Assembly: GCA_002352935.1 (NCBI GenBank)
Contig: DDHO01000011.1
Coordinates: 1 to 57,937, forward strand
DNA from: Firmicutes bacterium UBA1874
GTDB taxonomy: Bacteria; Bacillota; UBA1874
DNA: 57,937 nt
Direction of reading: 5' to 3'
Made by a program: the position numbers and the translations under genes. The notes under the pieces are model-generated. The model was not told the origin of the DNA and did no database searches. It saw only the letters and a list, made by a program, of their open reading frames with translations. The first letter of the stretch is position 1. Each line of letters starts with the position of its first letter. This document shows positions 6,660 through 57,841 of the stretch, piece by piece.

Positions 6660-7358
6660 TTAATGAGACAACTTTTTCCCAGAGATTGCTACAAAACCCC
6701 CTTCACCGTAACCACCCTTTACCGGTTCAACGGTAGTTATTTCCCCTAATGATTTAAATAGTGTTTGATAGAGCTGGATGCTTGTAAAGTCTAGCTTGTT
6801 TAACCATTTCAGTATGTCCTCAACCGCATAAAAAGTAACGTATTTATAAAATTCGCTTTTTTCCGATTTTGCCGCAAGACTTTTTCCCAGCTTGCTGTTT
6901 TTATCGATCAAGCCGATTATTAAAATTCCACCAGGGCGAAGAACCCTTCTTGCTTCTTGTAGGGCTTTAAAAGGGTCCTGAAGAAAGCAAATCGTTGTAA
7001 CTATGGCTGCGTAGTCAAAAGTGTTCTCTGGAAAAGGCAGTTCTTCTGCCACAGCCTTATATACTGTAATTCCTCTTTTTTCTGCAAGTTCCGCCATGGA
7101 TCCGGCGGGCTCAACACCTTCCTTAATGCCAAAAGGTTTCGCAAACCTCCCCGTCCCCACCCCTATTTCCAACCCCCTTCCTTTTGGAGGGACGAACCTA
7201 CTAAGAGCCGCTATCTCGGATTGATATATTAAAGGGTAATTATCAAACCATTCGTCGTATTTTTGAGCATTGCCTTCAAATACCAGTATGGTTTTCATTT
7301 TTTTTCCTTCTTTACTGATTGATTTAAGCCTTTCCGGTACAAAGCTCAAATTACTCAT
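6660..7358 (-). CDS. Class I SAM-dependent methyltransferase
   Basis: Motif I GLEIGVGTGRF and post-I/II pattern (LRPGGILIIG). An alternative start, MKTILVF at 7298, has a GAAGGA SD. Confidence 0.8.
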   Translation of the reverse strand: MSNLSFVPERLKSISKEGKKMKTILVFEGNAQKYDEWFDNYPLIYQSEIAALSRFVPPKGRGLEIGVGTGRFAKPFGIKEGVEPAGSMAELAEKRGITVYKAVAEELPFPENTFDYAAIVTTICFLQDPFKALQEARRVLRPGGILIIGLIDKNSKLGKSLAAKSEKSEFYKYVTFYAVEDILKWLNKLDFTSIQLYQTLFKSLGEITTVEPVKGGYGEGGFVAISGKKLSH

Positions 7359-7360: not shown

Positions 7361-7669
7361 TTAAATCAGTTCCCCAAACTGTTTAATCCACCAATCACAG
7401 TAAGACCTATCTACATTAAACGATTGATCGGGAGATATGTTAAGATCGTTTTCACATAAAACATAACAGTGATTATTTTTCGGGTTAGTCAGGACTTCGT
7501 ATGCTTCTGAAATTAACTTGAACATGTAGATTTTGCTTTCATCATTGCCATTCAAGTCAGGGTGGTAGTTTTTGGCTAAACGATAATAAGCAAGCCGGAT
7601 TTCTTTTTCTTCCGCATTTTCAGTTACGCCAAGAATTTCACTTGCCTTCTTTTTAATTTGAATTATCAT
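7361..7669 (-). CDS. J-domain (DnaJ-like) protein
   Basis: ILGV..EEKEIRLAYYRLAKNYHPDLNG carries the HPD motif. No DnaJ zinc-finger or C-terminal domains. Confidence 0.75.
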   Translation of the reverse strand: MIIQIKKKASEILGVTENAEEKEIRLAYYRLAKNYHPDLNGNDESKIYMFKLISEAYEVLTNPKNNHCYVLCENDLNISPDQSFNVDRSYCDWWIKQFGELI

Positions 7670-8142: not shown

Positions 8143-9186
8143 TTATGATAAAACTTCTATCATTCCCACTTCCTTGGCTGTAATATAACCGATATTCGCT
8201 GCTGCCAGGCACCCTTTTTTAAGCAAGGATTCCCGCAAGCGTTCCTCCCTGTCCTGGGGAACTGCTATTAACAGTCCACCTGACGTTTGTGGATCGCATA
8301 AAAGCATTCTGTCTTCCCGGCTGCTGATATCATTCCAGTTCACTTTTTCCCTCAGAAAACCGTAATTCCGGTAGGCCCCAGGCGGCACAATACCTGCTTC
8401 AGCCAACTCTCTTGTTCCATTTATCACAGGGATTTTAGATAAAAAAAGACTGGCTGAAACCTTGCTGGCAATCAGCATCTCTAATAGATGCCCTAAAAGA
8501 CTGAAACCTGTTACATCGGTACAGGCATTAACACCAATTACCGTCATTGCTTCAGATGCTTTTTTGTTCAGATGACCCATTATATTGTATACTTCCTTCT
8601 CTAGTGGGTCATTAATTAATTCCTGACCAAGGGCAGTGGTAATGATACCGGTGCCCAGCGGTTTAGTCAAAATTAAAGCATCCCCGGGTTTTGCCCCCCT
8701 TTTGGTAATTAATTTTGCAGGATCTACTATTCCTGTTACAGCCAAACCATATTTAGGTGCATTATCTTCCATGGAATGTCCCCCGGCAATACTAGCCCCT
8801 GCTTCCAAAGTTTTGTCTTTGCCTCCTTCTAGAATGACTTCCAGAATGTTAAGGGGCAGACTTTTTACAGGAAATCCCACAATATTGAGTGCAAAAACGG
8901 GCTTTGCTCCCATGGCATAAATATCGCTAATAGCATTTGAAGCTGCTACGGCACCAAAAGCATAGGGATCATTTAGAATGGGAGTAATTAAGTCTACAGT
9001 TTGCACAATGGCCAGAGAAGAACTGATTTGATAGATAGCAGCATCTTCTTTTATGCCACTAACGATCCTTTTATCTGTAACGGGAGGGAAATTATTTAAC
9101 AGCTGCTCAAGATCCGCCGGACCTATTTTGGAAGCTCAGCCGGCTCCAGGTGAAAAAGCAGTAAGCTTAATAAAGGGTTTTTCCAA
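8143..9186 (-). CDS. selD: Selenide, water dikinase SelD, a selenoprotein with an in-frame UGA at codon 17
   Basis: The ORF track gives only 8143-9006. The same frame continues upstream through TGA (9138-9136) to TTG 9186, which lies 7 nt after GAGGTG. The N-terminus reads MEKPFIKLTAFSPGAG-U-ASKIGPADLEQLL, the SelD glycine-rich loop with Sec where E. coli has Cys17. Total length 347 aa. Confidence 0.85.
9105..9138 (-). promoter_or_regulatory. UGA-Sec codon with putative bacterial SECIS hairpin
   Basis: UGA is followed by GCUU(9135-9132)/GAGC(9108-9105) and GGUCC(9123-9119)-GGC-GGAUC(9115-9111) stems. The apical stem starts 12 nt after the UGA. Confidence 0.45.
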
Positions 9187-10746: not shown

Positions 10747-10823
<77 letters not shown>

Positions 10824-17180: not shown

Positions 17181-17325
17181 TAAAAATACCTCTTCCCGGA
17201 GAAGAGGTAATAAATCCATCTTTAGCCTTATCTCCCAGGATAAACCTGCAGGATTTAGCACCTTCCCCTTCAGGGAGGTTGCCGGGTTTCACAGGGCCAG
17301 TCCCTCCACCTCTCTTGATAAGAGC
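17181..17325 (-). promoter_or_regulatory. SAM-I (S-box) riboswitch with terminator expression platform
   Basis: The minus strand reads CTTATCAAGAGAGGTGGAGGGACTGGCCCTGTGAAACCCGGCAACC...GGTGCTAAATCCTGCAG...GGAGATAAG. It is followed by CCTCTTC-tccgg-GAAGAGG and a U-run (17207-17181). Confidence 0.92.
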
Positions 17326-32749: not shown

Positions 32750-34036
32750 CTAATCTTCCAACAGTGACTTCAGATGCTCAAAAAAGCCGGGATATGAAAT
32801 ACCTGCGCTTTCTGCTTCCCGAACTACCGTTTCTCCCTCAGCCACAAGGCCGGCAACAGCCAGCGACATAGCTAACCGGTGATCGCCATGTGCATTTACC
32901 TCAGCTGCACGCAATCTTACAGGGCCTTTTATGATCATACCGTCAGGAAGTTCTTTTACTTGTGCTCCCATGCATTTTAATTCCTTAACGGTCAGGGATA
33001 TGCGGTCGCTTTCCTTAACGCGAAGTTCCTGTGCATCTTTGATTAAGGTTTCTCCATGTGCCTGAGTAGCAGCTACGGCCAAAACAGGAATTTCATCTAT
33101 TAGTCTGGGGATAATACCTCCCTTTATACAAGTCCCCTTTAATTTTGAAGCACGCACTAAAAGATCGGCAACTGGTTCCCCGGCTATCATTTTTTGGTTT
33201 ATGATCCTAACGTCGGCTTCCATTTTTCTCATTATTTCTATAATCCCGGTCCGGGTAGGGTTTATACCCACGTTTTTGATGAGGATCTCAGCACCAGGTA
33301 CGATACAAGCAGCTACAAGAAAAAAAGCAGCGGCCGAAATGTCGCCGGGAATAAAAAGCTTTTGACCTTTAAGACGGTTATTACCTGAAACAACAACCTC
33401 CAGCCCTTTTTTCTTAATTTTCCCCCCGAAGGAACGAAGCATACGTTCAGTATGATCGCGTGAAAGAAATGGTTCAGTTATGCTTGTAACCCCGTCCGTA
33501 AAAAGCGCTGCCAGAATAATTGCAGATTTAACCTGAGCACTCGCAACCGGCAGGGTATAGTTTAAAGCTTTCAAAGGTCTACCCACAACTGTAAGGGGAG
33601 CGAACCTGCCACCCTGTCTGCCGAAAATAAATGCTCCCATTTTCCTTAAAGGTTCAACCACCCTGGCCATGGGTCTTTTTCTCAGAGACGCATCACCGGT
33701 TAGAGTAAAATATCCTTCCTGACCCGCCAGGGCTCCCAATAATATGCGCATTGTAGTCCCGGAATTTCCTGCCTGAAGTACATCCTGAGGTTCCTGTAAA
33801 CCTCTCAGTCCCAGGCCATAAATTTTCAAGTCGCTATTAGAGTTTTCGACCTTTGCTCCCAGCGCTTCCAAGCATCTTAACGTGCTCAGACAGTCTTCGC
33901 CCGGAGAAAAGCCGCCGATCTCCGTGATCCCCTCTGCCAATGTGCCCAAAATGGCTGCGCGGTGAGATATAGATTTATCTCCTGGAACGCATATTTCTCC
34001 CCGCATTTTTACCGGCCCGGTAATATGAAAATCCAA
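32750..34036 (-). CDS. aroA: 3-phosphoshikimate 1-carboxyvinyltransferase (EPSP synthase)
   Basis: PGDKSISHR and LGNSGTTMR-like (AGNSGTTMR) motifs, 428 aa. Confidence 0.94.
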   Translation of the reverse strand: MDFHITGPVKMRGEICVPGDKSISHRAAILGTLAEGITEIGGFSPGEDCLSTLRCLEALGAKVENSNSDLKIYGLGLRGLQEPQDVLQAGNSGTTMRILLGALAGQEGYFTLTGDASLRKRPMARVVEPLRKMGAFIFGRQGGRFAPLTVVGRPLKALNYTLPVASAQVKSAIILAALFTDGVTSITEPFLSRDHTERMLRSFGGKIKKKGLEVVVSGNNRLKGQKLFIPGDISAAAFFLVAACIVPGAEILIKNVGINPTRTGIIEIMRKMEADVRIINQKMIAGEPVADLLVRASKLKGTCIKGGIIPRLIDEIPVLAVAATQAHGETLIKDAQELRVKESDRISLTVKELKCMGAQVKELPDGMIIKGPVRLRAAEVNAHGDHRLAMSLAVAGLVAEGETVVREAESAGISYPGFFEHLKSLLED

Positions 34037-34048
34037 TTCGCTACCTCC

Positions 34049-35155
34049 CTAACGCCTGTACACTTCTATTCCCTTTTCTGAAAGTACTTGCTCGGCCTTT
34101 GCCCGTTCTTCGGCAGTGGCAAATGCAATTCTTATTGAGCCTTTTTCTCCTTCTCTTACTCGAAGTATTTCTATGTCCGAAATATTTGAGCCACTACGGC
34201 CCAACGCGGAAGCTACTTCTCCTATTATGCCCGGCCGATCCGGAACTGCAATTAACAGTTCATACAAGGGAGGAAGTATACCTTTCTGTTCCCTGGGAAT
34301 TTGTTCCCTGCAGGTCTGTGCTTTCCTCAACCACTCCAGAAGCTGATCCCGTTTGTTTCCTTCTAACAATGCGCACAATGCGTCCATTTGTTTTTGAAAA
34401 CGAAGAATGGCTTCTTTCAACCTCTTTTTATTAGCCAGGCATATATCCACCCAAAGTTCAGGATTAGATCCCGCAACACGTGTAGTATCACGGAAACCGC
34501 CTGCGCTTAAAGTTAAAGTATGGCTTTCTTCCTTATTTAGCTCTGCAGCTGCGTTTACCAGGGCGGCAGCAAGCACATGCGGAAGGTGGCTTACCGTTGC
34601 AACTATGCGATCGTGAGTAGCGGGATCCATCAATACGGGCCTCGCGCCGAGGATTTCTACCATAGAAATTATCTTTTTGATCGCCTCATCCGGAGTTTTA
34701 TGGGTGGGGGTGAGAGCATAAACAGCGTTTTCAAACAGGTAGCTATCCGCTGCCTGGAATCCCGATCGTTCAGAACCGCTCATCGGGTGCCCTCCTAAAA
34801 ATTTCAAGCCTGCCGGGAGGAGACGTTCCATTGCACTCACAATAGTTTCTTTTGTGCTCCCCACATCTGTGATAACGCACCCTTCTTGGATGTGCGGTAA
34901 GATCGTTTTTACCAGACCTGTAATAACGCTTACGGGCACCGCCATAACGACTATTTCTGCACCTGCCACCCCTTTTTCTATATCCTTTCCCGCCATATGA
35001 ACTGCACCCGCTGACAGCGCCATCTTTATCGTTTCTGCATCTTTATCTACTCCATATACACAGTTAACTTTTTTGCTGCCCTTAAGTCTCCAGGCTAAAG
35101 AACCTCCAATAAGGCCGAGACCGATTACAGTCACTTTTTGAAATTCAAAGGACAT
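34049..35155 (-). CDS. tyrA: Prephenate dehydrogenase with C-terminal ACT domain
   Basis: VTVIGLGLIGGS Rossmann motif and GGHPMSGSE catalytic motif. Confidence 0.9.
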   Translation of the reverse strand: MSFEFQKVTVIGLGLIGGSLAWRLKGSKKVNCVYGVDKDAETIKMALSAGAVHMAGKDIEKGVAGAEIVVMAVPVSVITGLVKTILPHIQEGCVITDVGSTKETIVSAMERLLPAGLKFLGGHPMSGSERSGFQAADSYLFENAVYALTPTHKTPDEAIKKIISMVEILGARPVLMDPATHDRIVATVSHLPHVLAAALVNAAAELNKEESHTLTLSAGGFRDTTRVAGSNPELWVDICLANKKRLKEAILRFQKQMDALCALLEGNKRDQLLEWLRKAQTCREQIPREQKGILPPLYELLIAVPDRPGIIGEVASALGRSGSNISDIEILRVREGEKGSIRIAFATAEERAKAEQVLSEKGIEVYRR

Positions 35156-36000
35156 TTGCTCTCCACCTCAATATGTTGCGGGTATGATCCCAGTATCTGT
35201 ACCTCAGCCATAGTTCTTACGCGAGAAATAACCTCTAAAAGTGCTTTTTCCGAGCAGTGCCCTTCGCAATCCAGGAAAAATACATATTCCCCCAAATTAT
35301 ACTTGGTCGGCCGTGACTCTATTCTCGTCAGGTTTATCTCCGCGCGTGCAAATTCTTTTAAGATATTGTACAGTACTCCCGGCCTGTTCTCGGGCGGGCT
35401 CACCACTAAAGACGTTTTATCGCAGCCGGTTCTCATTGTTGAGCCCCTCCCGACAATAATAAAACGGGTTTTATTTCCTTCATAATCCTGAATGCTGGCT
35501 GCCAGGATCTGTAGTCCGTACCGTCTTGCAGCGAGAGGAGAACTTATAGCAGCAGAGTTTTCTTTTTCCCCTTGTGAGGCAACCCTTCCAGCTGCTTCCG
35601 CGGTGCTCACAGTTTCTATTATCCGGGCATGAGACAGCCGTTTATTAAGAAAACCCTGGCACTGCGCTAGAGCCTGGGGATGAGAATAAACAACTTCAAT
35701 ATTTTCTAATGAAGAGTTCTTACCGGCAAGGCAGTGTTCAACAAGAACAATAATTTCACCTTTAATAGATAACTCTTTTAGTTCTCTTAAACGATCAAGA
35801 GTGAGGTTGACTGCTCCCTCTATGGAATTTTCCACAGGAACAACGCCCGCGTCAACGTCTCCTCCTCTTACTGCTAAAAGCACCTCGGGGATGCTTTTAA
35901 AAGGTACTAGCTCCAAGGTGTCTTTTTGTTGCTGGGACCAGTTGTAAGCAGCCTGGTGAGAAAAAGTTCCCGGTGGTCCTAAATAACCCAATCTTTTCAA
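35131..36000 (-). CDS. pheA: Prephenate dehydratase
   Basis: YLGPPGTFSH N-terminus and TRF..ESRP ACT-domain motifs (TRIESRP). Confidence 0.92.
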   Translation of the reverse strand: MKRLGYLGPPGTFSHQAAYNWSQQQKDTLELVPFKSIPEVLLAVRGGDVDAGVVPVENSIEGAVNLTLDRLRELKELSIKGEIIVLVEHCLAGKNSSLENIEVVYSHPQALAQCQGFLNKRLSHARIIETVSTAEAAGRVASQGEKENSAAISSPLAARRYGLQILAASIQDYEGNKTRFIIVGRGSTMRTGCDKTSLVVSPPENRPGVLYNILKEFARAEINLTRIESRPTKYNLGEYVFFLDCEGHCSEKALLEVISRVRTMAEVQILGSYPQHIEVESKCPLNFKK

Positions 36001-36007
36001 AATTCCA

Positions 36008-37033
36008 TCACGCCAGTTTTCTCCCCTCTATGTGGGCTATTTTTTTTATTTGCTCCATCACGCCCGCAAAATCGTCCGGCGTCAACGACTGAGAACCGTC
36101 GGAGACCGCTTCCGAAGGGTTAGGATGAACTTCAACCATAAGGCCGTCCGCTCCTGCTGCAACCGCAGCCTTGCTCATCGGCGCAACCAGCTGCCGCTGC
36201 CCGGTACCATGGCTGGGATCAACTATTATGGGTAGATGAGAGAGGTGTTTTATTATTGGCACCGTACTGAGATCAAGCGTATTGCGCGTATAAGTTTCAA
36301 AGGTGCGAATTCCCCTCTCGCAGAAGATCACGTTATAATTTCCGCCGGCCATAATATATTCCGCAGCCAAAATCCACTCTTCTATGGTGGAGGACAGGCC
36401 GCGTTTTAAAAGCACCGGCTTATTGATTGCCCCCAGTTCCTTCAAAAGATAAAAATTCTGCATATTCCTTGCACCCACTTGCAGAAGATCAGCATATTCC
36501 GCAACTAAGTGCACAGTATTTTGGTCCATTACCTCAGTAACTACGGGCAGGCCGGTAAGTTCCCGTGCTTTGGCCAGAATTTTTAATCCTTTTTCCTGTA
36601 ATCCCTGGAAAGAGTAAGGAGAAGTGCGCGGTTTAAAAGCTCCGCCTCTCAGCATAGTGGCTCCTGCTTTCTTCACGGCTTCCGCCGCCTGAAGGAGGCT
36701 TTCCTCACTTTCAACGGCACACGGACCTGCAATTACCTCCAGTTCTTCTCCTCCTATCTTACGGTTTCCCACATTAATAACAGAATCTTCCGGGTGAAAT
36801 TCCCTCCCCGCAAGTTTGTAAGGCTGCAAAATGGGTACTACTTTTTCGACTCCCGGCATAACTTCGATGGCCATTTCACGCAATTTTGTTTTTGTATCCT
36901 CCCCAATTACTCCGATAATTGTACGGGCAACACCGCTCGAAAGATGTATTTTAAAGCCTTCTCGAGAAAGGCGTTCCTTTACAGCTTCTATGTTCTCTTC
37001 TGAAACATTTCTTTCCATGATTATAATCACCAT
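36008..37033 (-). CDS. aroF: 3-deoxy-7-phosphoheptulonate (DAHP) synthase, class I-beta with N-terminal ferredoxin-like regulatory domain
   Basis: KDO8PS/DAHPS-I-beta core (GPCAVES, DPSH) preceded by a regulatory domain of about 70 aa. Confidence 0.9.
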
Positions 37034-37162
37034 AAGCTCCCCTTTCTTCGATAATAATCGGTAAATTTAGAACCATTGCCTTTAAATTATATATAAAGAT
37101 TCCACCATAAAGCCTCACACGCCTTTCTTTGATGACAAAAAACGGTAAACCTTTTGGAAAAT

Positions 37163-37190
37163 AAAAAAGATCACCCCGGTTTAAGTGATC
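37163..37190 (-). terminator. Intrinsic terminator in the trpA-aroF spacer
   Basis: GATCAC (37190-37185), 10-nt loop, GTGATC (37174-37169), then TTTTTT (37168-37163). Confidence 0.65.
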
Positions 37191-37358
37191 GCAGCCATTT
37201 CAACCACCTCGCTACCGTTCTGCCGGAAATGCTTTTAAACCTTAACCTGTTTCTTGCCGTGCTTCCAGAATCTTCTACCCGGATATTATAAAATAGTGAA
37301 ATCAAGATCACAGTGGATCATAGCACAGCATCCGATCACTGGCAAGATTTTTTTATCT

Positions 37359-38186
37359 TTAAGCGCTGCAGGCCTCGTTAACAGCCTTTTTGAGACCTCC
37401 TATAAAACGGGATACCTCCCGTAGCAAGTCTTGAGAGCCGCTGTAAGAAGCAACTAAATTTACTACTGCACTCCCCACTATAACGCCATCACACCAAGAA
37501 GCAGCTTCACGGGCCTGTTCATTTGTGGAAATACCAAATCCCAGTGCCACAGGATAGCTGCTTTGCTTTTTGACGCGCGTTAGGTACTGGGGGATACCGG
37601 GTGCTATATTCTTCCGAGCTCCAGTTACCCCTGTTAAAGATACACAGTAGATAAAACCTCGTGCCGAGGCCAGAATGCTTCCCAGCCTTTTCTGGGGAGT
37701 AGTAGGAGCTACCAGCGGTATCATGCTTATATTCTTTTTGTGTATAGTACTGCGCAGTTCTTCGCTTTCCTCTAAAGGAAGGTCGGGGACAATAAGGCCG
37801 TCAACTCCACATGAAGAAGCCTGCACAGCAAAACTGTCAAAACCAAAACGAAGCAGCGGGTTGTAATAGCTCATAAGAATAATAGGGACCTCCGTTCTGG
37901 CCCGTACTTCTGATACCATTTCTAATATTTTGGGAAGGTTAGTACCCGCTTTCAAAGCGCGAGTAGAAGCTGCCTGAATGGCAGGCCCATCCGCAATAGG
38001 ATCTGAAAACGGAACTCCGAGTTCTACCACATCAGCACCTTCTGCAGCGGCAGTCAGAACTAATTTTTTTGTGGTTTCCAAATCTGGGTCTCCTGCGCAA
38101 AAATAGATAATAAGAGTTTTTTCTCTTCTTTTTGAATTCTCTTTAAATACCCCGGCAACCCGGTCTAAGTGTTCTGCCGGAATCAT
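37359..38186 (-). CDS. trpA: Tryptophan synthase alpha chain
   Basis: Full-length TrpA similarity (ELGVPFSDPIADGP). ATG 38186 lies 8 nt after GGAAAGGAG. Confidence 0.93.
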   Translation of the reverse strand: MIPAEHLDRVAGVFKENSKRREKTLIIYFCAGDPDLETTKKLVLTAAAEGADVVELGVPFSDPIADGPAIQAASTRALKAGTNLPKILEMVSEVRARTEVPIILMSYYNPLLRFGFDSFAVQASSCGVDGLIVPDLPLEESEELRSTIHKKNISMIPLVAPTTPQKRLGSILASARGFIYCVSLTGVTGARKNIAPGIPQYLTRVKKQSSYPVALGFGISTNEQAREAASWCDGVIVGSAVVNLVASYSGSQDLLREVSRFIGGLKKAVNEACSA

Positions 38187-38249
38187 AATCACTGCTCCTT
38201 TCCAAAAGCACAACTTATTTTTTAACTGGAAAAAATTACTGTATAAGCA

Positions 38250-39443
38250 TTAAATATGTGCGCCGCTGCCAAGCACTCCGGCAACAGTCTGTACGTCCTT
38301 ATCGCCCCTTCCTGACAAGTTTACGATTATGATTTCTTCTTTACTCATATTTCCTGCTTCCCGTTTAATATAAGCAAGCGCATGAGCGCTTTCCAAGGCA
38401 GGGATTATCCCTTCCGTACGGGCTAAAAGCTGAAACGCATCAAGAGCTTCCCGGTCAGTAACCGATACGTATTCAGCTCTCTTTGAATCTTTTAGATAAC
38501 TGTGTTCCGGGCCCACCCCGGGGTAATCTAAACCCGCGGAAATCGAATGAACAGGACTAACCTGTCCGAATTCATCCTGCAGGAGGTAGCTGTAAGAACC
38601 GTGAAGTACTCCGGGAATTCCCTTGGTGAGGGACGCCGCATGCTCTCCGGTATCTAGTCCCCTTCCTGCAGCCTCCACACCTATAAGCCTTACGTCATCA
38701 TCTAGGAACGGGTAGAAAATGCCCATAGCATTACTTCCCCCTCCTACGCAGGCAACAATGCAGTCCGGAAGCCTGCCTTCCTTTTCAATAATCTGTTCCC
38801 GTGTTTCCCTGCCGATTACCGTTTGAAAATCCCTGACCATGACAGGGTAGGGGTGCGGTCCCACTACCGAACCGATAACATAATAAGTGTCGTTCACATT
38901 TGTTACCCAGTCCCTTATGGCCTCGCTGGTAGCATCCTTGAGAGTTCGGGAACCGGTAGAGACCGGAACAACTTCAGCACCCAAAAGACGCATGCGAAAC
39001 ACATTTAACTCCTGCCTCCGCATATCTTCTTCGCCCATAAAAATCTCACACTTTAAGCCCAGCAGGGCAGCAGCAGTCGCTGTAGCCACACCGTGTTGAC
39101 CGGCTCCCGTTTCAGCAATGATACGTTTTTTCCCCATCCTCCGAGCCAGCAAAACCTGGGCCAGAGCGTTATTAATCTTGTGTGCACCCGTGTGATTGAG
39201 GTCTTCTCTTTTTAAATATATTTTCGCCCCTCCCAGTTTCCGAGTTAACTGATCAGCATAATAGAGCGGTGTCGGCCTACCCACGTATTCCCGAAGATAA
39301 AACGATAAAGTATTTAAAAATTCCGGATCGCTGCGGGCTTTAAAATAGGCTTTTTCAAGTTCAAGAACGGCAGGCATCAATGTTTCGGCTAAAAAACGAC
39401 CTCCATAATCTTTAAAGTGACCTTCGCTATCAGGTAATACCAT
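38250..39443 (-). CDS. trpB: Tryptophan synthase beta chain (TrpB1 type)
   Basis: [14 protein letters not shown]-lysine motif, 397 aa. Confidence 0.95.
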
Positions 39444-40065
39444 TTTCAGCCCTCCTAATATTTATAATAAACTCCTTAATCAAAAAAGAATTTTTGACAC
39501 CGTTTTTTTCAACTCCACTGCTGACATCTACCGCATAGGGGTACACAGCAACCACGGCATCATATATATTTTGGGGAGTTAGACCGCCCGCAAGTACAAT
39601 TTTAAACCCCGCTCCAACCGCCCGCCGGGCCAGATCCCAATTGAAAGTCCTCCCCGTTCCACCGATCTGGCCTGGCAAATAAGTATCCAGTAAAAATCCT
39701 CCCGCAACCCCCCTGTACGCTTCCATTTCCCGCAGTACTTTTTTATTACGCACGCGAAAAGCTTTGATTACTACCCAGCCTATTTGCCGGCAGTACGAAA
39801 CCCCTTCCTCTCCATGCAGCTGGATAGTATCCAAGCCGCAATATTCAGCCGTTTCGCGTAAAATATTTAAGCTTTCGTCCACAAAAACTCCAACTTTATT
39901 TACGAAGGGTGGAAGCTGTTCGGTAATCTCCCTTGCTTTTTCAGGTGTAATGTAACGTCGGCTGGGGCCGTAAAAAACAAAGCCCAGGGCATCTGCGCCA
40001 GCATTTATGGCTTCCAATGCTTCTATCCGGTCTTTAATACCGCATATTTTAACCCTCACGGCCAT
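39430..40065 (-). CDS. trpF: Phosphoribosylanthranilate isomerase
   Basis: VKICGI N-terminus and TIM-barrel TrpF pattern. Confidence 0.92.
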
Positions 40066-40855
40066 TCAGCCTCGCTCCTTTCTCAACTTGAAGTTCTCTT
40101 ATCTTTCTGCCGGGATTCGGGCTGGTAACCAGTCCCTCTCCTACAAGAATTGCATCTACTCCCAGTGCAGCAACCCTGCAGGCATCTTCTCGTGTTTTAA
40201 AACCGCTTTCGCTTACTACAGCACAACCCCGTGGTAGGTACCTGATTAACTGAACAGTAATTTCCAAATTAACTTTAAAATCACGGAGGTTGCGATTATT
40301 AATCCCTATAATGGAAGCTCCAGCTCCTATGGCATCTTCAATTTCGGAAGCAGTATGCGCCTCTACCAGGCAGTCCATATGTAATTTTTCTGCAAGTTCG
40401 AGAAATTCATATAGCTTTTCGGGTGTTAAGGCACCCGCAATAAGCAGAACAGCATCGGCTCCCGCGCACCTCGCCTCGTAAATTTGATAAGGATCAAGAA
40501 TAAAATCTTTGCAAAGCAGGGGTAAATTAGTAATTTTCCGTGCTTCCGACAGGTTGCTCAAACTCCCTCCGAAGTAACGCTCATCGGTAATCACCGATAT
40601 AGCTGAAGCACCCGCCTGCTCGTATAAAGCCGCAAGCCGGTGGACATTAAAATCGCGGCAGAGAGTACCGCGCGAAGGCGAAGCTTTTTTTAACTCTGCG
40701 ATAATTTTCAGATTCTTGCTCTTTCTAATTAGGGCCGCTTTGAAGCCCCTCGTCGGGGGTTGTGTATAAGCCATTTCCCGTATTTCTCCCAGGGGGACAA
40801 CCTTTTTTTTCTCAGCAATTTCTTTTAGTTTGTTATCTAGTATGGGCTTTAACAC
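40049..40855 (-). CDS. trpC: Indole-3-glycerol phosphate synthase
   Basis: IAELKKASPS and GINNRNL motifs. Confidence 0.93.
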   Translation of the reverse strand: MLKPILDNKLKEIAEKKKVVPLGEIREMAYTQPPTRGFKAALIRKSKNLKIIAELKKASPSRGTLCRDFNVHRLAALYEQAGASAISVITDERYFGGSLSNLSEARKITNLPLLCKDFILDPYQIYEARCAGADAVLLIAGALTPEKLYEFLELAEKLHMDCLVEAHTASEIEDAIGAGASIIGINNRNLRDFKVNLEITVQLIRYLPRGCAVVSESGFKTREDACRVAALGVDAILVGEGLVTSPNPGRKIRELQVEKGARLNGREG

Positions 40856-41877
40856 TAGGCAGCACTGCTCCTGCTAAATTCAGCCAGTTCCTGGAGTTTT
40901 TTATAAGCAGCTCCGGAATCAATGCTCTCGAAAGATAATTCAATCCCTTCCCGCGGAGAAGAAACACGGCCTGCAGCCATCAGTGCAAAAGCGGAGTTTA
41001 AAAGCACTATATCACGACAGGGCCCCTTTTCCCCCAGTAAAACTGCCCGGGTTAATCGTGCATTTTCTTTGGCTGTACCGCCTCTTATACTCTCCAAAGG
41101 AGCCCTCTGAAGGCCAACCTGCTCCGGAGCAATAGAAAAAGTCCGAATACGGTTATTCCTCAGTTCCGTTACTTTGGTTTCCCCTGTGATAGTTATCTCG
41201 TCCAAACCATCGCAACCGTGCACAACATAAGCACAACTGCTCCCAAGCCGTTGAAGAACGGCAGCCATTACTTCGGTAAGAGAGGCATCGTAAACTCCTA
41301 AAACCTGCGCTCGCGCTCCAGCAGGATTGGTAAGAGGACCGAGAATATTAAATACAGTACGTATCCCGATTTCCCTCCGCGGTCCTGCTGCATATTTCAT
41401 GGCTTCATGAAACCGGGGGGCAAACATGAAAGCTATACCCGTTTCATTAAGGCACTTTTCAACCGCAGTTGGAGAAAGCTCAACTTCCACCCCGAGTTCT
41501 TCCAGGACATCAGCACTGCCGCACCTGCTGGAAACCGACCGGTTTCCATGCTTGGCCACCGGAACGCCCGCTCCCGCAACCACAAAGGCCGCTGTGGTCG
41601 ATATATTAAAGCTGTTGCTGCCATCACCACCCGTCCCGCATGTATCGACAAGGTTTTCAAGGCAGGCATTAATGCAGAAAGCTTTAGACCGCATGGCCCG
41701 CACGAAACCGGTTATTTCCGGGACTGTCTCTCCTTTTAGGCGCATAGCAGTCAAAAAAGCGCCTATCTGTGCAGCTGTAGCCCTGCCTTCCATAACTTCG
41801 TTAAGCACAACCTCGGCTTCACTTTCGGTAAGATGGGTACCCTTTACAATGATGCCCAGCGCATATTTTATATCCAA
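40855..41877 (-). CDS. trpD: Anthranilate phosphoribosyltransferase
   Basis: DTCGTGGDG and KHGNRS motifs. Confidence 0.94.
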   Translation of the reverse strand: MDIKYALGIIVKGTHLTESEAEVVLNEVMEGRATAAQIGAFLTAMRLKGETVPEITGFVRAMRSKAFCINACLENLVDTCGTGGDGSNSFNISTTAAFVVAGAGVPVAKHGNRSVSSRCGSADVLEELGVEVELSPTAVEKCLNETGIAFMFAPRFHEAMKYAAGPRREIGIRTVFNILGPLTNPAGARAQVLGVYDASLTEVMAAVLQRLGSSCAYVVHGCDGLDEITITGETKVTELRNNRIRTFSIAPEQVGLQRAPLESIRGGTAKENARLTRAVLLGEKGPCRDIVLLNSAFALMAAGRVSSPREGIELSFESIDSGAAYKKLQELAEFSRSSAA

Positions 41878-41912
41878 TGAAGATTTCCCCTTTCTTTCAA
41901 GGTTATAATTAC

Positions 41913-42536
41913 TTATTTTTGGTCAACAACATCCCTTACAATAGTAACCGCCGAAAAGTCAGAAGGTATTCCATATGCAACCATAAAATTTTTGAGGAGC
42001 TTTTCTCCTTCCGAACACAGGATCGATTCCGGATGAAACTGAACCCCTTCTACAGAAAAATCCCGATGGCGTATGCCCATTATTTCTCCTTCCTCCGTTT
42101 CTGCTGAAATTTCCAGACAGGAAGGAAGCGTCTGACGCTCCAGAATTAAAGAATGATAGCGAGTTGCGGGAAAAGGATTGGGAAGATTTTTATAAATCGT
42201 CCTCCCATCGTGGTATATCAAAGAAGTTTTACCGTGAACTATGCGGTCCGCCCTGATTACTCGCCCCCCGAAATGCTGTCCCAGACACTGGTGGCCAAGG
42301 CAAACGCCAAAAATGGGGATTTTTCCGCAAAAATATTCTATGACTTCAAGAGACACACCAGCATCATAGGGAGTCCCCGGCCCGGGAGATATCAATATCC
42401 CGTCGGGCTGGAGTTCGGCTATCTGAGTTACAGATACTGCATTATTTCGGTATACCAGGGTGTGGTATCCCAGCTTGCCCAAGTGTTGAACAAGGTTGTA
42501 AGTAAAGGAGTCAAAGTTGTCAATCATTAGAAGCAT
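41913..42536 (-). CDS. trpG: Anthranilate synthase component II (glutamine amidotransferase)
   Basis: IDNFDSFTYNL and GVCLGHQ catalytic Cys. ATG 42536 lies 6 nt after GGGGAG. Confidence 0.93.
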   Translation of the reverse strand: MLLMIDNFDSFTYNLVQHLGKLGYHTLVYRNNAVSVTQIAELQPDGILISPGPGTPYDAGVSLEVIEYFCGKIPIFGVCLGHQCLGQHFGGRVIRADRIVHGKTSLIYHDGRTIYKNLPNPFPATRYHSLILERQTLPSCLEISAETEEGEIMGIRHRDFSVEGVQFHPESILCSEGEKLLKNFMVAYGIPSDFSAVTIVRDVVDQK

Positions 42537-44034
42537 AGTATTCTCCCCTCTCACTCATCTCCAGTGCCGCGATGAGCGCGCTTGCTTTATTCCAGGTTTC
42601 CTCGTATTCCTTTTCTGGAACAGAATCGGCAACTATCCCCGCTCCTGCCTGGATATAAGCCCTGCCGCCGGTTATAACCAGCGTACGAATAGCAATGCAG
42701 GTATCCATATTTCCGTTAAGGCTAAGGTAGCCAACAGCTCCCGCGTAGGGGCCCCTGCGATTAGGTTCCAATTCTTCAATTATTTCCATGGCCCTAACCT
42801 TGGGAGCTCCAGAAACGGTCCCCGCGGGAAAACAAGCAGCCAGTACGTCCAAGGCGCTTTTATTTTCAAGCAGCCTGCCCTGTATGGATGAAACAAGATG
42901 CATAACATGTGAATAATTCTCTACTTCCATAAACTGCTCGACTTTCACAGAACCGTATTGGCATATTCTTCCTAGATCGTTACGTCCCAAATCAACCAGC
43001 ATAATATGCTCTGCCCGTTCCTTGGGATCCCCTTTTAAATCTCCTGCAAGCGCACGGTCTTCCTGAAGGTTATTTCCCCTCTGACGGGTACCGGCAATAG
43101 GACGATAAAATATATTATCGTCATCAACTCTGACCAGCATCTCCGGGGATGACCCCACAAGCTGCACTTCGGGAAAATTTAAATAAAACATATAAGGAGA
43201 AGGGTTAAGGACTCTTAGGCTCCGGTATAACTGAAAAGGATCCCCTTCATACGCTCTGTGCCAGCGTTGGGATAAAACTACCTGAAATATATCCCCTGAC
43301 CTGATATATTCTTTGGCACGCTTAACTTTTTCTGTAAAATCCTCTTTAGTAATATTGTTCCTATACAACTCCCTAAGAGAAACATGCTTCGTAATTTTAA
43401 ACCTGGGTGAAATTTCAAACGTTACCTTGCGCTCTTTGTCGCCCAGCAGCTTTTTAATTTCTTTTATTTTTTCGCGTGCTTTGCTATAAGATAAAGCCGG
43501 TTTTTCTTTATCTATCTCCATCAACACAACGATCCTGAGCGTACGCTGTACATGATCATAAATAAGTACAATTTCAGTTAAAACAAGATAGCATTCAGGC
43601 AGGTGAAGGTCGTCAAGGGTATAATCGGGTATTTTTTCTATACATCGTACGATATCGTAGCTCCAGTAACCCACAAAACCCCCAAAAAAACGCGGCAAAT
43701 TTTCCTGTTCTTCTACGCGGTACATTTTTAAAAAGTCCTCTAAAAGCTTTAAAGGATTGCCTGCCATTCTATCGGTCCGCCCTTTTTTTTCAATTTCAAT
43801 CTTGTTCCCCCATGAACGCAGGATAAATATAGGATTGAGACCGATAAAGGAATATCTGGCTACCTTTTCCCCTCCGGTAACGCTTTCCAGCAGGTAAGAA
43901 TGACCGAGCGGGCGAAGTTTTTGGTAAAGTGAAACAGGAGTTTCACAGTCCACAACTATTTCTTCCCACACCGGTACTATCCGACTGTCCAGATCCCTGG
44001 TTCTTTTTAAAAACTCCTTGAAACCCGGTTCCAT
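42520..44034 (-). CDS. trpE: Anthranilate synthase component I
   Basis: Chorismate-binding domain (GAVGYL, GAGIV), 504 aa. SD is GGAGGTGGAG. Confidence 0.95.
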   Translation of the reverse strand: MEPGFKEFLKRTRDLDSRIVPVWEEIVVDCETPVSLYQKLRPLGHSYLLESVTGGEKVARYSFIGLNPIFILRSWGNKIEIEKKGRTDRMAGNPLKLLEDFLKMYRVEEQENLPRFFGGFVGYWSYDIVRCIEKIPDYTLDDLHLPECYLVLTEIVLIYDHVQRTLRIVVLMEIDKEKPALSYSKAREKIKEIKKLLGDKERKVTFEISPRFKITKHVSLRELYRNNITKEDFTEKVKRAKEYIRSGDIFQVVLSQRWHRAYEGDPFQLYRSLRVLNPSPYMFYLNFPEVQLVGSSPEMLVRVDDDNIFYRPIAGTRQRGNNLQEDRALAGDLKGDPKERAEHIMLVDLGRNDLGRICQYGSVKVEQFMEVENYSHVMHLVSSIQGRLLENKSALDVLAACFPAGTVSGAPKVRAMEIIEELEPNRRGPYAGAVGYLSLNGNMDTCIAIRTLVITGGRAYIQAGAGIVADSVPEKEYEETWNKASALIAALEMSERGEYYASND

Positions 44035-44064
44035 ACTCCACCTCCACTGCTTATTTTAGACACT

Positions 44065-44092
44065 AAAAAACCGGCGCCAAGGGACACCGGTT
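44065..44092 (-). terminator. Leader terminator (attenuator) upstream of trpE
   Basis: AACCGGTG (44092-44085), 8-nt loop, CGCCGGTT (44076-44069) running into a U-tract of six. Confidence 0.7.
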
Positions 44093-44117
44093 CTGTGGTC
44101 AATTACAAGATCCGCAT

Positions 44118-44165
44118 CTCTCCTTAGCTCAACTCTTCTCCGCTCAACTCTTCTCTGCTCATCTA
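44118..44165 (-). promoter_or_regulatory. Array of 10 NAG triplets at exact 5-nt spacing (TRAP-type RNA-binding site)
   Basis: TAG-at-GAG-ca-GAG-aa-GAG-tt-GAG-cg-GAG-aa-GAG-tt-GAG-ct-AAG-ga-GAG on the minus strand. Confidence 0.75.
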
Positions 44166-44241
44166 AATATTAAGTTTTATGTGCATCGGCACTGTTAGTT
44201 TAGCAAACACGCCTCAACTAAAACCACTAAACTATATCTAG

Positions 44242-44270
44242 AGACTAACATCTTTATTTTAAAATGTCAA
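44242..44270 (-). promoter_or_regulatory. Putative sigma-A promoter of the trp leader
   Basis: TTGACA (44270-44265), 17-nt spacer ending in TGt, then TAGTCT (44247-44242). Confidence 0.45.
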
Positions 44271-44290
44271 CACTACTTTTTTAAAATTTT

Positions 44291-44659
44291 TTAAATTAAC
44301 TCTGGCCGCAGCTGTGCCGCTTCACGAAGGTACACGTGTTTAATTTTTCTGGACTCCACTTCAGTATTGACGTGCAATAAAACCCTGATTATGCGGGGCA
44401 GGCTGCCGGGCACATCAATTTCCTGGGCGCAAAGAAGGGGAACGTATTTCCACCCCAACTCACGTGCAGCGCGGGCCGGAAAGGTAGACCTCAGATCCGG
44501 AGTAACCGTAAAAAAGGCGCTGGCAATATCGTCGATGTTGAGACTGTTTTGCTCTACAATTGCCTGTAGCATTTCCCGCGTAGCACGCATTATCTCTTCC
44601 GGTTCATCAGAAACTACCGATATCGCACCTCTAATGCCTCTTACACAAGTTTCTGCCAC
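44291..44659 (-). CDS. aroH: Chorismate mutase, AroH class
   Basis: VRGIRGAISV...FPARAARELGW...VPGSLPRIIRVLLHVNT is typical of AroH. GTG 44659 lies 8 nt after AGGAG and 4 nt after the upstream stop, which removes the 18-codon overlap in the ORF track. Confidence 0.88.
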   Translation of the reverse strand: MAETCVRGIRGAISVVSDEPEEIMRATREMLQAIVEQNSLNIDDIASAFFTVTPDLRSTFPARAARELGWKYVPLLCAQEIDVPGSLPRIIRVLLHVNTEVESRKIKHVYLREAAQLRPELI

Positions 44660-44663
44660 GTTA

Positions 44664-45092
44664 TCAACTCCTGCCCGGAGCAACCCTGTGTCCCAGACCA
44701 ACGCCGACTTCATTTAAATGCAATAAGCCGATACCAAAGAACACAGCAACGCTAACATGCTCTTTGTATCGAGCTATGCCAATCTTTCCTCCTACATTAA
44801 GGCCGACGGCTTTAACCATGAGCTGGGACAACGCCTCTCGTGCCGCTCCGGCAACTGCACCTTCATCAGCATGTATACCCTCTATCACGCCCTCACGTTT
44901 TGCAGCAACTACCGTTCTCTCTACAATGTTCTTTACGGAACCTATAAATTCCCCTCCGTAATCTACAGCGGCCGTTTTTATGCTCTGGTTGAGAAATCTC
45001 TCCTTGAGCTCACTTTCCTCTTTCCTGTTTCTAGATATTGCCATCTGTATAGCCGCTCTGGCTATGTTCCTGCTACCGTACATATCTTCCAC
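44664..45092 (-). CDS. HutP family protein (RNA-binding antiterminator family), ligand and target unknown
   Basis: 142 aa. REGVIEGIHADEGAVAGAAREALSQLM...GLNVGGKIGIARYKEHVSVAVFFGIGLLHLNEVGVGLGHR is colinear with B. subtilis HutP and matches the clostridial HutP-family sequence type. GTG start lies 10 nt after GGGGAGG. Confidence 0.75.
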   Translation of the reverse strand: MEDMYGSRNIARAAIQMAISRNRKEESELKERFLNQSIKTAAVDYGGEFIGSVKNIVERTVVAAKREGVIEGIHADEGAVAGAAREALSQLMVKAVGLNVGGKIGIARYKEHVSVAVFFGIGLLHLNEVGVGLGHRVAPGRS

Positions 45093-45154
45093 TTGGGATT
45101 ATCCTCCCCGCTTCTCTATAAAATACCTCAGCGCAATTATAAATAAATATCAAG

Positions 45155-46147
45155 TCATTTTTTTAGCCAAGGCATCATTTTACGAAGGTCTCCCCCCACT
45201 TTTTCTATAAGGTGGTCCCTGTCCCGTTCATTCAGAGCATTAAACTGCGGGCGGTTGGCCTGGTTCTCTAAAATCCATTCCTTGGCAAAGCTCCCGTTCT
45301 GGACTTCTTCCAGTATACAACTCATCTCTTCACGAACATAATCATCTATGATGCGGGGACCACGGGTAAGATCGCCGTACTGGGCAGTATCGCTCACAGA
45401 GTAACGCATACCGGCAAGGCCGCCCTCGTAGATAAGATCGACTATTAGCTTAAGTTCGTGCAGGCATTCAAAGTAGGCAATCTCGGGCTGGTAACCCGCT
45501 TCTACCAGGGTCTCAAAACCAGCTTTAATTAAAGCCGTAACCCCCCCGCATAGAACAGCCTGCTCGCCAAATAAATCGGTTTCAGTTTCTTCCTTGAAAG
45601 TCGTCTCGATTACTCCGGCACGGGTGCAGCCGATACCCTTTGCATAAGCCAAGGCAAGAGTTTGTGCTTGCCCGGTATAATTGTGTTCTACTGCCAAAAG
45701 ACCAGGTACTCCAACGCCCTGCTGGTACATTCGGCGGACCAGATGGCCGGGACTTTTAGGGGCTACCATGAAAACATCCACATGCTCCGGCGGCACTATT
45801 TGCCCGTAATGGATATTAAAGCCATGAGAAAAAACGAGGGCATCCCCTTTTTTCAAGTTATCTTTAATTTTTTCCTCGTAAACTTTTTTCTGTACCTCAT
45901 CGGGTAAAAGAACCTGTATTATTTGGGCTGCTTCAGCCGCCTCTTCAACTTCCATTACCTTGAGACCGTCTCTTTCAGCTTTTTCCCATGAACTGCTGCC
46001 GGAACGCAAACCTACAACAACATCCAGACCGCTGTCATTTAAATTTTGGGCCTGGGCATGTCCCTGGCTACCGTAGCCCAGGACTGCAATCTTTTTACTT
46101 TTCAATACTTCCAGATCTGCATCGGCGTCGTAGTAAATTTTAGCCAT
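45155..46147 (-). CDS. ilvC: Ketol-acid reductoisomerase
   Basis: [12 protein letters not shown]...[13 protein letters not shown] and full-length class I KARI similarity. Confidence 0.95.
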
Positions 46148-51782: not shown

Positions 51783-52772
51783 TCAACCGATGCCCATCGC
51801 CTCCCTTACTTTTTCCATCGTTTCTCTCACAACTTTCCGGGCTCGTATCTCCCCTTCCTTTAGCACATCATTTAAATAATTTTCGTTAGCTTCCAGCTCT
51901 TTTCTCCTGCTGCGGATGGGTTCCAGAACCTTGTCCATTCTGCCGGCAAGGTCTTTTTTGCAGGCTACGCAACCGATTTTTCCTTTTTCACAAATTTCTT
52001 TTATTTCGTCTATCCTCTCGGTATTAAAAATTTTTTGGTAGGCAAAAACTGTACAAACCTCGGGGTGGCCGGGATCTGTACGGTGGATGCGGGCCGGATC
52101 CGTAACCATTGAACGTACCTTCTCCCACAGGGCTTCGGAATCGCTGTCTATAGCAATGTCATTCCCGTAGCTTTTACTCATTTTCCGCCCATCTATACCA
52201 GGTAAAAGAGCAATCCGGGAAAGCATGGCCTTGGGTTCGGGAAAGATCCGGGTATTATAAATGTAATGAAACCGTCGAACAATTTCCCTGCAAAACTCGA
52301 GGTGCGGCAGCTGGTCTTCGCCTACGGGCACGGTATCAGCGCAATAAATAATAATATCTGCTGCCTGCAGCAGGGGATAACCTAAAAAGCCGTATGTGGA
52401 GACATCTTTACCGGCTTCCTGGAGCTGATATAACTGTTCTTTATATGTCGGAACGCGCTCGAGCCAGGACAAAGGAGTAATCATAGATAGTAGCAGATGC
52501 AGTTCCGCATGTTCCTTAATATGCGATTGAATAAATATTGTGCTCTTCTGAGGATCTATTCCTATGCTCAGCCAGCTAAGAAGCATTTCTCTTATATTTT
52601 CCTTAATTTTTTCCGTATTGTCATAAGACGTGGTTAAAGCATGCCAGTCCACAATGGTAAAAAAACATTCATATTCTTCTTGGAGTTTAACCCAATTTTC
52701 CAAAACGCTATGATGGCCTATATGCAGCTTCCCGGTAGGCCGCATTCCACTCAAAATCCTTCCTTTAAACAT
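51783..52772 (-). CDS. trpS: Tryptophan--tRNA ligase
   Basis: SGMRPTGKLHIGH (HIGH) and KMSKS motifs. Confidence 0.95.
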   Translation of the reverse strand: MFKGRILSGMRPTGKLHIGHHSVLENWVKLQEEYECFFTIVDWHALTTSYDNTEKIKENIREMLLSWLSIGIDPQKSTIFIQSHIKEHAELHLLLSMITPLSWLERVPTYKEQLYQLQEAGKDVSTYGFLGYPLLQAADIIIYCADTVPVGEDQLPHLEFCREIVRRFHYIYNTRIFPEPKAMLSRIALLPGIDGRKMSKSYGNDIAIDSDSEALWEKVRSMVTDPARIHRTDPGHPEVCTVFAYQKIFNTERIDEIKEICEKGKIGCVACKKDLAGRMDKVLEPIRSRRKELEANENYLNDVLKEGEIRARKVVRETMEKVREAMGIG

Positions 52773-56461: not shown

Positions 56462-57823
56462 CTAGAGCTCTGGCAGGGTGGACCAGCTCTTCTCCAGCAA
56501 TTCATCCGAAAGGGGGGCATCTTTAAGCTGCCCGCTTAAATAATTATCATAAGCAGAAAGGTCAAAATGCCCGTGCCCGCTGAGATTAAAGAGTATGGTC
56601 TTGCTTTCGCCGCTTTCCTTGCAGGCCAATGCCTCTTCAACGGCACCATGAATAGCATGAGCACTTTCTGGAGCCGGAAGTATTGCCTCTGTCCGGGCAA
56701 ACAAAACGGCGGAAGAGAAGACGTCTCTTTGATTGTAAGCCCTAGCAGTTATATACCCGTCATGATAAAGCTGGCTGAGGAGTGGCGACTCGCCGTGATA
56801 TCTCAAGCCGCCTGCATGAATGCCAGGAGGTACAAAGTCATGGCCCAACGTATACATTTTAAGCATGGGAGTAAGTTTAGCGGTATCCCCAAAATCGTAG
56901 GCAAATTTTCCGCGTGTCAGAGTCGGACAGGCAGTAGGTTCAATCGCACGCAATTCTATCTTTTTCCCGTTTAAAATATCAGTAAAAAAAGGAAAGGCAA
57001 TTCCGCTGAAATTGCTCCCCCCGCCGCAGCACCCGATAACTACATCAGGAAAAGCATCAGCTTTTTCCATCTGTTTTTTAGCCTCCAGGCCTATGACGGT
57101 CTGGTGTAGCATAACATGATTGAGAACGCTACCCAGAGAGTAATGAGTATCACTACGGGAAGCTGCAATTTCTACGGCTTCGCTGATCGCAATACCAAGT
57201 GTTCCCGGAGAAGAAGGATCTTTTTCTAATATTTCGCGTCCGGATTTAGTCTGACTGCTGGGACTGGGAATAACATTCGCACCATAAGTTTCCATAAAAA
57301 TCCGGCGGTAAGGTTTTTGATCATAGCTTACTCGTACCATATACACTTCGCATTCCAGGTCAAAAAAGCTACAGGCTATGCTGAGCGCAGTACCCCACTG
57401 GCCGGCACCCGTTTCAGTAGTCAAACGTTTTGTACCGGAAATCTTATTATAGTAAGCCTGGGGTAAGGAAGTATTTAATTTATGACTGCCGGCAGGGCTT
57501 GTCCCTTCATACTTGTAGTAAATTTTGGCTGGAGTATCCAGTTCTTTCTCCAAATTGTAAGCACGGTACATGGGAGACGGGCGCCAAAGACGGTAGAGTT
57601 CTCTTACTTTCTCAGGAATTTCAATCCAGCGGTCAGTACTTACCTCTTGAATTATCAGGTCCATAGGGAAAAGGGGTGCAAGGTCCTCAGGCCCTGCAGG
57701 TTTTTTGGTAGCCGGATTTAAAGGGGGGCTTAATGGGTTAGGTAAGTCCGCCTGAATATTATACCAGCTTGTTGGAATATCTTTTTCTTCTAATAAAATT
57801 TTATAATCTTCACTCAACCTCAT
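56462..57823 (-). CDS. TrpB-like PLP-dependent enzyme (tryptophan synthase beta, TrpB2 type)
   Basis: N-terminal [13 protein letters not shown] extension, SHKLN lysine motif, roughly 450 aa as in TrpB2. The ATG at 57823 follows GAGGAGAGGAGAG. The ORF-track TTG at 57838 lies inside that SD. Confidence 0.88.
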
Positions 57824-57841
57824 CTCTCCTCTCCTCAACTA
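57808..57841 (-). promoter_or_regulatory. Phased NAG triplet array covering the SD and start codon of the TrpB2 gene
   Basis: TAG-tt-GAG-ga-GAG-ga-GAG-at-GAG-gtt-GAG-tg-AAG on the minus strand. The AUG is formed by the 'at' spacer plus the G of the fifth triplet. Confidence 0.6.

Follow-up and report, generated by a model that had tools for sequence, protein, structure and literature searches.

The window analysed here is a stretch of 57,937 nt from a metagenome-assembled genome (MAG) of Firmicutes bacterium UBA1874 (contig DDHO01000011.1), an uncultured anaerobic Firmicute with a host GC content of 43.8% that is related to Desulfotomaculia, Moorellia and Thermincolia. On the minus strand of the window aroH is followed by trpE, and the spacer between the two genes is the leader that is the subject of this study. 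The 5' neighbour of the leader encodes a monofunctional chorismate mutase of the AroH type (CM_1/AroH), and a gene for a protein of the Pfam family HutP lies one gene further upstream than aroH, on the same strand. On the 3' side a domain scan identified the genes for TrpE, TrpG and TrpD; the trp cluster closes with trpA and has the order trpEGDCFBA, in which trpC, trpF and trpB were presumptively assigned from the order of the open reading frames (ORFs) alone. The position of the leader between aroH and trpE, as given in the original prediction, is confirmed by the Pfam assignments of the flanking genes.

In the direction of transcription the leader carries a promoter-like sequence, a stem-loop, an array of ten NAG triplets, an intrinsic terminator and the Shine-Dalgarno (SD) sequence of trpE (Table 1). 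The coordinates predicted earlier for the promoter, the hairpin, the extra triplets, the array and the terminator were all reproduced on the minus strand. The SD sequence indeed lies 3' of the terminator, but it starts 20 nt past the U tract and not about 30 nt, as stated before. Based on this architecture, its conservation and the presence of TRAP (MtrB) in related organisms, we consider it likely that the leader is a TRAP-dependent transcription attenuator of trpEGDCFBA, as in Bacillus subtilis.

Table 1 Features of the trpE leader, of the window around it and of related loci. Positions are those of the window unless a related locus (L number) is given.
Feature	Position	Strand	Basis or remark
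-35 hexamer TTGACA	44265..44270	minus	read from sequence
Extended -10-like element TGTTAGTCT (TGtTAGTCT), 17 nt past the -35 hexamer	44242..44250	minus	read from sequence, putative
5' stem-loop, TAGTTTAG (44234-44227) pairing with CTAAACTA (44203-44196)	44196..44234	minus	RNAfold, -8.8 kcal/mol
Ten NAG triplets (UAG, 7 GAG, AAG, GAG)	44118..44165	minus	candidate TRAP-binding site
15-nt tandem duplication, 2.3 copies of GAGAAGAGTTGAGCG, three triplets per unit	44127..44161	minus	Tandem Repeats Finder, period 15, 95% match
Candidate antiterminator, 44125-44105 with 44096-44079	44079..44125	minus	minimum-energy fold of the nascent transcript
Intrinsic terminator, AACCGGUG(UC)/(GG)CGCCGGUU followed by U6	44065..44094	minus	RNAfold, -16.7 kcal/mol
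SD sequence GGAGGTGGAG and trpE ATG (44034-44032)	44032..44045	minus	read from sequence
Spacer aroH-trpE	aroH stop 44291, trpE ATG 44034	minus	256 nt, read from sequence
trpE ORF	44034-42520	minus	Pfam Chorismate_bind and Anth_synt_I_N
HutP-fold gene	44664-45092	minus	Pfam HutP, 163 bits
Seven in-phase triplets (UAG, 5 GAG, AAG) over the SD sequence and AUG (57823-57821) of trpB2	57808..57841	minus	triplet scan
trpB2, TrpB-like pyridoxal phosphate enzyme, at the contig end	56462-57823	minus	NF009057, 745 bits
Degenerate copy of the GGYAG element, trpA-aroF gap	37280-37275, 37224-37204, terminator 37190-37163	minus	read from sequence
Other GGYAG leaders (examples)	L003 11750-11965, L007 5700-5812, L008 2140-2255, L034 1369-1445, L047 15678-15758
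mtrB contexts, dnaE-mtrB-(DUF2007)-(accDA)-pfkA-pyk	L082/L083 6001-6228, L084 6001-6231, L165 1501-1737, L169-L173

The central element of the leader is the triplet array. The first bases of the triplets recur every 5 nt, from 44165 down to 44120, and all spacers have a length of 2 nt; nine of the triplets are of the type (G/U)AG. Seven of the ten fall within a 15-nt tandem duplication, and the perfect register of the array is therefore partly the outcome of one duplication event. The whole 58-kb window was shuffled 200 times with its dinucleotides preserved and searched for in-phase runs with spacers of 2-3 nt. The longest run per shuffle had four to seven triplets; seven were reached in two shuffles and ten in none. 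A chance origin of the ten-triplet array is excluded. In the real window only two runs of at least six triplets are found, with ten and seven triplets, and each of them lies directly 5' of a gene for tryptophan synthesis. Transcription of the leader would start near 44236, about 7 nt past TGnTAGTCT. The hairpin at the 5' end is modest, with 8 bp, and is itself made of UAG and GAG triplets. Extra UAG/GAG triplets have their first bases at 44240, 44220 and 44215, and the 5' part of the leader (44247-44215) is unusually rich in UAG.

The core of the terminator stem is formed by AACCGGTG (44092-44085) and CGCCGGTT (44076-44069), followed by T6. According to the original prediction no competing antiterminator could be identified, and this has to be corrected. 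When the nascent transcript of the window, still without the 3' arm of the terminator, was folded, a structure appeared that sequesters the 5' arm of the terminator. The 5' strand of this candidate antiterminator consists of the AAG, the last GAG and the bases after it, and the 3' strand is the 5' arm of the terminator plus its loop. When the triplets were forced to be single-stranded, the terminator remained the dominant structure. The isolated antiterminator hairpin has a calculated energy of -13.6 kcal/mol and is less stable than the terminator, and read-through would therefore hinge on the kinetics of folding.

Relatives have leaders of the same design. Related loci were fetched via the neighbouring HutP-family protein from contigs of one genome per species, which gave 80 loci that all carry this protein; their titles include Desulfofundulus, Neomoorella, Thermincola, Pelotomaculum, Syntrophomonadaceae and many MAGs of Bacillota and Clostridia. 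In these loci and the window together (1.09 Mb), runs of at least six (G/U/A)AG triplets with spacers of 2-3 nt are found almost only immediately 5' of trpE. A triplet-rich leader precedes each of the 15 trpE genes in the related loci, with the triplets of three leaders (L012, L021 and L075) being irregularly spaced and recognised by eye only. Mostly, the orthologous leaders have six to twelve chained triplets with spacers of 2-3 nt, and most of them have a TTGACA at the equivalent position 5' of the triplets. About 20-45 nt past the triplets, a counterpart of the terminator with the consensus CCGGYRCUCAUUUGAGYRCCGG and a run of U follows in 16 orthologous leaders. About 16 independent leaders show the same design without the 15-nt duplication. 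Hence, both the phase of the triplets and the terminator are kept in orthologous trpE leaders, as the check suggested with the original prediction has shown. What is not kept in most of them is the structure of the 5' hairpin; many leaders begin with triplets at their very 5' end.

Nascent folds of 17 leaders gave a consistent picture. In all 17, sequence 5' of the terminator masks its 5' arm, and in 14 it is the last triplets that pair with this arm, over 5-12 bp. The apex of the terminator is apparently conserved in sequence because its CUCAU is complementary to AUGAG of the terminal GAGAUGAG repeats. The window deviates from this consensus on both sides, with AAGGAG in place of GAGAUGAG at the end of the triplets and UCCCUU in place of CUCAUUU at the apex. 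When the terminator arms of the 17 leaders were swapped in silico, the window arm was the best partner for the window triplet end (-12.2 versus a mean of -8.6 kcal/mol), in a test that is only mildly discriminating overall, since most leaders have one common consensus, and in which the arms of L047 and L055 were mislocated. As far as can be judged in silico, the predicted antiterminator thus appears to co-vary with the terminator.

Canonical TRAP is encoded by members of the clade. A profile of divergent TRAPs (PF02081) retrieved MtrB from Carboxydothermus, Desulfitibacter, Thermosyntropha, Caldicellulosiruptor and Heliorestis, and also from Thermincola ferriacetica, Syntrophomonadaceae, Thermoanaerobacteraceae and a Peptococcaceae isolate. 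These proteins retain E35, K36, D38, K55, R57, F31, T29, H33, Q46, T48, T51 and S52 (P0122 numbering), the residues that contact RNA or tryptophan in TRAP of B. subtilis. In all four contexts inspected, mtrB lies just 3' of dnaE and 5' of pfkA, sometimes with accDA or a DUF2007 gene in between. No TRAP was found in any of the 80 related loci by tblastn and two TRAP hidden Markov models (HMMs) run on six-frame translations, and the same searches confirmed the earlier statement that no mtrB-like gene lies in the window. None of the neighbourhood genes dnaE, pfkA and accD is present in the window either; since the window does not cover this neighbourhood, its lack of mtrB says nothing. T. ferriacetica has TRAP, and L070, a MAG from this species, has a layout of hutP-like gene, aroH, leader and trpE that is identical to that of the window. 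No description of TRAP leaders in Clostridia-type taxa was found in the literature searched.

The trp leader of B. subtilis has 11 (G/U)AG repeats, and its switch is based on a protein that occupies the 3' triplets and thereby prevents formation of the antiterminator (PMC3064811). The leader described here would work in the same way. When tryptophan is scarce, the end of the array and the bases after it would pair with the 5' arm of the terminator and with its loop, and the resulting antiterminator in the nascent RNA would mask the 5' arm, so that RNA polymerase continues into trpE. With ample tryptophan, the ring of tryptophan-loaded TRAP, which would be encoded by mtrB elsewhere in the genome, would wrap the ten triplets around its rim; the 3' triplets held by TRAP could not pair any longer, the terminator would form and transcription would end before trpE. 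This model implies that the MAG encodes TRAP, that TRAP binds the leader RNA and that tryptophan controls termination.

The likeness to the trpEDCFBA leader of B. subtilis and its TRAP goes far. There, too, the leader lies between aroH and trpE in an aromatic supraoperon, has a 5' stem-loop and about 10-11 (G/U)AG triplets with spacers of 2-3 nt, and combines an intrinsic terminator before trpE with an antiterminator, the 5' strand of which overlaps the last triplets and the 3' strand the terminator's 5' arm. An extra triplet site over the SD sequence of another tryptophan gene is a further common feature. In B. subtilis, the 5' stem-loop itself contributes to TRAP binding, trpG, trpP and ycbK have translational TRAP sites and mtrB is part of the mtrAB (folE-mtrB) operon. 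The differences are that the host of the window is not a Bacillus, that all spacers are exactly 2 nt, which is partly due to the 15-nt duplication, that one triplet is AAG, that the clade mtrB lies in the context dnaE-mtrB-pfkA, that the second target in the window is trpB2 and that TRAP is not encoded on this contig.

The second triplet run in the window covers the ribosome-binding site of trpB2, and it is probably a site of translational repression, at which the same TRAP would block translation of trpB2. The inference is weaker than that for trpE, since among 80 metagenomic trpB2 orthologues (62-69% identity) only the three to four closest ones show similar runs; the others are mostly without.

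Several observations weigh against a TRAP-dependent attenuator at trpE. A TRAP homologue is absent from the 57.9-kb window, where the clade HMM gave a best score of 5 bits compared to 149 bits for the positive control, and the co-occurrence of TRAP and a leader of this kind is shown for only one species, T. ferriacetica; further contigs with TRAP that were inspected come from different assemblies than the related loci. The predicted antiterminator is broken by several 1-nt bulges and is weaker than the terminator. The array contains one AAG, a suboptimal triplet for TRAP. In a scan with a simple consensus, both the promoter and the terminator of the leader went uncalled; the promoter was missed because its -10 region is weak, with TAGTCT matching TATAAT at only three of six positions. 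Finally, another protein family that recognises NAG is represented nearby by the HutP-fold protein encoded two genes upstream. In favour of the TRAP-style reading of the original prediction are the conserved leaders, the antiterminator, the lack of a T-box and the TRAP proteins of the clade.

What else could the array be? It is very improbable that it is a non-functional, purine-rich tandem duplication and that the operon is controlled by a T-box, a leader peptide or its promoter. The share of triplets that stem from one duplication and the failure of the consensus scans to call promoter and terminator would fit such a view, but none of the shuffles has ten triplets and the independent orthologous leaders have the same design without the duplication. 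In trp operons of clostridia and other Gram-positive bacteria, leaders of the tRNA-Trp T-box type serve the same purpose and control trpE by terminator and antiterminator, but the leader of the window is different: it has no specifier-loop architecture and no match to the T-box covariance model. The T-box (RF00230) was found neither in the whole window at the gathering threshold nor in the region 43950-44350 at E<=10, and the leader has no match to any other Rfam family at either threshold, in line with the earlier statement that the leader has no T-box; T-box control of trpE was therefore rejected. Ribosome-mediated attenuation was rejected as well, since the only leader ORFs, encoding MSREELSGEELS and MRIL, each followed by a stop, are without a tryptophan codon.

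More weight has to be given to the HutP-like protein, which the original prediction had put forward as a possible binder of the leader RNA. In this case it would not be TRAP but the HutP-like protein that binds the array, as an analogue of TRAP in a lineage without mtrB, and termination or antitermination would respond to tryptophan or another aromatic ligand. There are arguments for it: the gene is the second one upstream of the leader and has the same orientation, the window is without a TRAP gene, the 5' part of the leader is rich in UAG, and in XAG triplets it is the A and the G that HutP recognises (PMC2425495). The AlphaFold model of the protein (pLDDT 87) can be superimposed on the HutP structures 1VEA, 1WPV and 4OK9 with TM scores of 0.70-0.74, at about 20% identity. 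The link to HutP rests on Pfam and this fold comparison because sequence searches fail: phmmer and a family profile were both negative against the solved HutP proteins in the PDB and hhalign gave only a weak signal. The protein does not match NF002838, the HutP equivalog of NCBIfam, and no hut genes are found near its gene, whose neighbour is aroH and not hutH; it was therefore rejected that it is the antiterminator of histidine utilisation. As in the HutP/hut system of B. subtilis, a small HutP-fold protein and a leader with repeated XAG and a terminator are found together, but HutP of B. subtilis prevents termination of a catabolic operon whereas the triplets of the window precede a biosynthetic operon.

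The geometry of the array also speaks against the HutP-like protein. The RNA target of HutP has two sites with three XAG triplets each, spacers of 4 nt (triplets 7 nt apart) and a linker of 12-17 nt, arranged around the terminator stem (PMC2425495), whereas the leader has ten contiguous triplets that are 5 nt apart, with 2-nt spacers, and all of them lie 5' of the terminator; a HutP-type leader was rejected for trpE on these grounds. A further argument is the distribution in the related loci. The HutP-like protein is about 70% identical across these lineages of anaerobic Firmicutes and aroH directly follows its gene in about 70 of the 80 loci, with or without trpE; trpE follows in only about 15. 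In L005, L040, L077 and L064, trpE is separated from aroH by 1.5-5.5 kb with other genes and has its own triplet leader each time. Since every trpE has its own triplet leader, even far from aroH, the period-5 repeats track trpE and not the hutP-like gene. In addition, T. ferriacetica has the same locus layout and encodes TRAP, and GGYAG-N3-GGYAG repeats upstream of hutP-like, aroH and aroF, which are described below, would suit binding of the HutP type better. Altogether, the HutP-like protein is not favoured as binder of the trpE leader, and we regard it as unlikely in this role. A slim chance can be given to a dual input, in which the GAG array would be bound by TRAP and the UAG-rich region of the 5' hairpin (44247-44196) by a second, modulating factor, either the HutP-like protein or a different one. 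Six extra UAG/GAG triplets, unevenly spaced (5-9 nt) within the 5' hairpin and next to it, and a gap of 70 nt between hairpin and array, which is missing from most orthologues, would argue for it. However, the 5' hairpin lacks conservation among relatives and its region lacks the GGYAG motif with a period of 8; given the role that the 5' stem-loop of B. subtilis has in TRAP binding, a second factor is not needed. TRAP acting on the array is the reading that we prefer for trpE.

The leader is part of a larger cluster on the minus strand (32750-46147) that resembles an aromatic supraoperon and comprises ilvC, the hutP-like gene, aroH, trpEGDCFBA, aroF, pheA, tyrA and aroA; the aroF product is a DAHP synthase with an FXD domain. 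Elsewhere in the window, trpS (51783-52772) is found without a T-box, an S-adenosylmethionine-I (SAM-I) riboswitch lies at 17225-17324 on the minus strand (89.8 bits) and a tRNA gene at 10750-10823, also on the minus strand.

Inspection of the related loci revealed a second kind of repeat element on the aro genes. It consists of tandem GG(U/C)AG pentamers with spacers of 3 nt and thus a period of 8. The pentamers frequently form two clusters, and a terminator with the stem CACUCC...GGAGUG and a run of U comes after them. The strict motif GGYAG-N3-GGYAG has 43 matches in the sense of the genes and 7 in antisense in 1.03 Mb, compared with a chance expectation of about 6 per strand. Among the sense matches, 33 lie at most 260 nt 5' of the starts of hutP-like, aroH or aroF, in a zone that accounts for 4.4% of the sequence. 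The motif is found before 16 of 24 aroF starts and overlaps the SD sequence of aroH or aroF in several loci. In the window, a degenerate copy lies between trpA and aroF. In nascent folds, a G-rich tract after the GGYAG repeats pairs with the 5' arm of the terminator; the logic of the attenuator would therefore be the same as with TRAP. No Rfam family matches the element. Other repeats were seen in a few loci: tandem heptamers (CAGGAGT)n flank the pair of hutP-like and aroH in L041 (~6650-6690, 7361-7420) and L006 (~8890-8930), and L036 has dense short tandem repeats of the type TAGCTTG/TAGCTGG on both strands (5780-5900).

We suggest that the GGYAG element may be the real target of the HutP-like protein, with the qualification that all loci were chosen for carrying this protein, so that there is no negative control. 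A protein of the HutP family would then have been recruited for the common aromatic pathway, where it would combine a TRAP-like logic with a HutP-like fold and some aromatic ligand; in a more radical variant, it would also read the 5' part of the trp leader, which is rich in UAG. The window could thus harbour two protein-dependent repeat attenuators side by side, with TRAP acting on trpE and the HutP-fold protein acting on the GGYAG leader as a feedback attenuator of the aromatic pathway. We put this forward tentatively, as a possibility that falls somewhat short of even odds. The GGYAG element is undescribed in the literature searched, in which we also found no HutP homologues tied to trp or aro genes or to aromatic biosynthesis.

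A triplet array, an antiterminator and a terminator conserved in sequence are common to the relatives from Desulfofundulus, Neomoorella, Thermincola, Pelotomaculum and Syntrophomonadaceae. With TRAP as the likely regulator, attenuation by this protein would extend from Bacillus to an uncultured anaerobic Firmicute, which would help in annotation and in the reconstruction of regulons, and would hardly surprise specialists. The second system would reach further. If confirmed, it would give a function to a large, uncharacterised branch of the HutP family outside of hut operons, and it would be a third system of attenuation by protein binding to RNA triplet repeats, beside TRAP and HutP.

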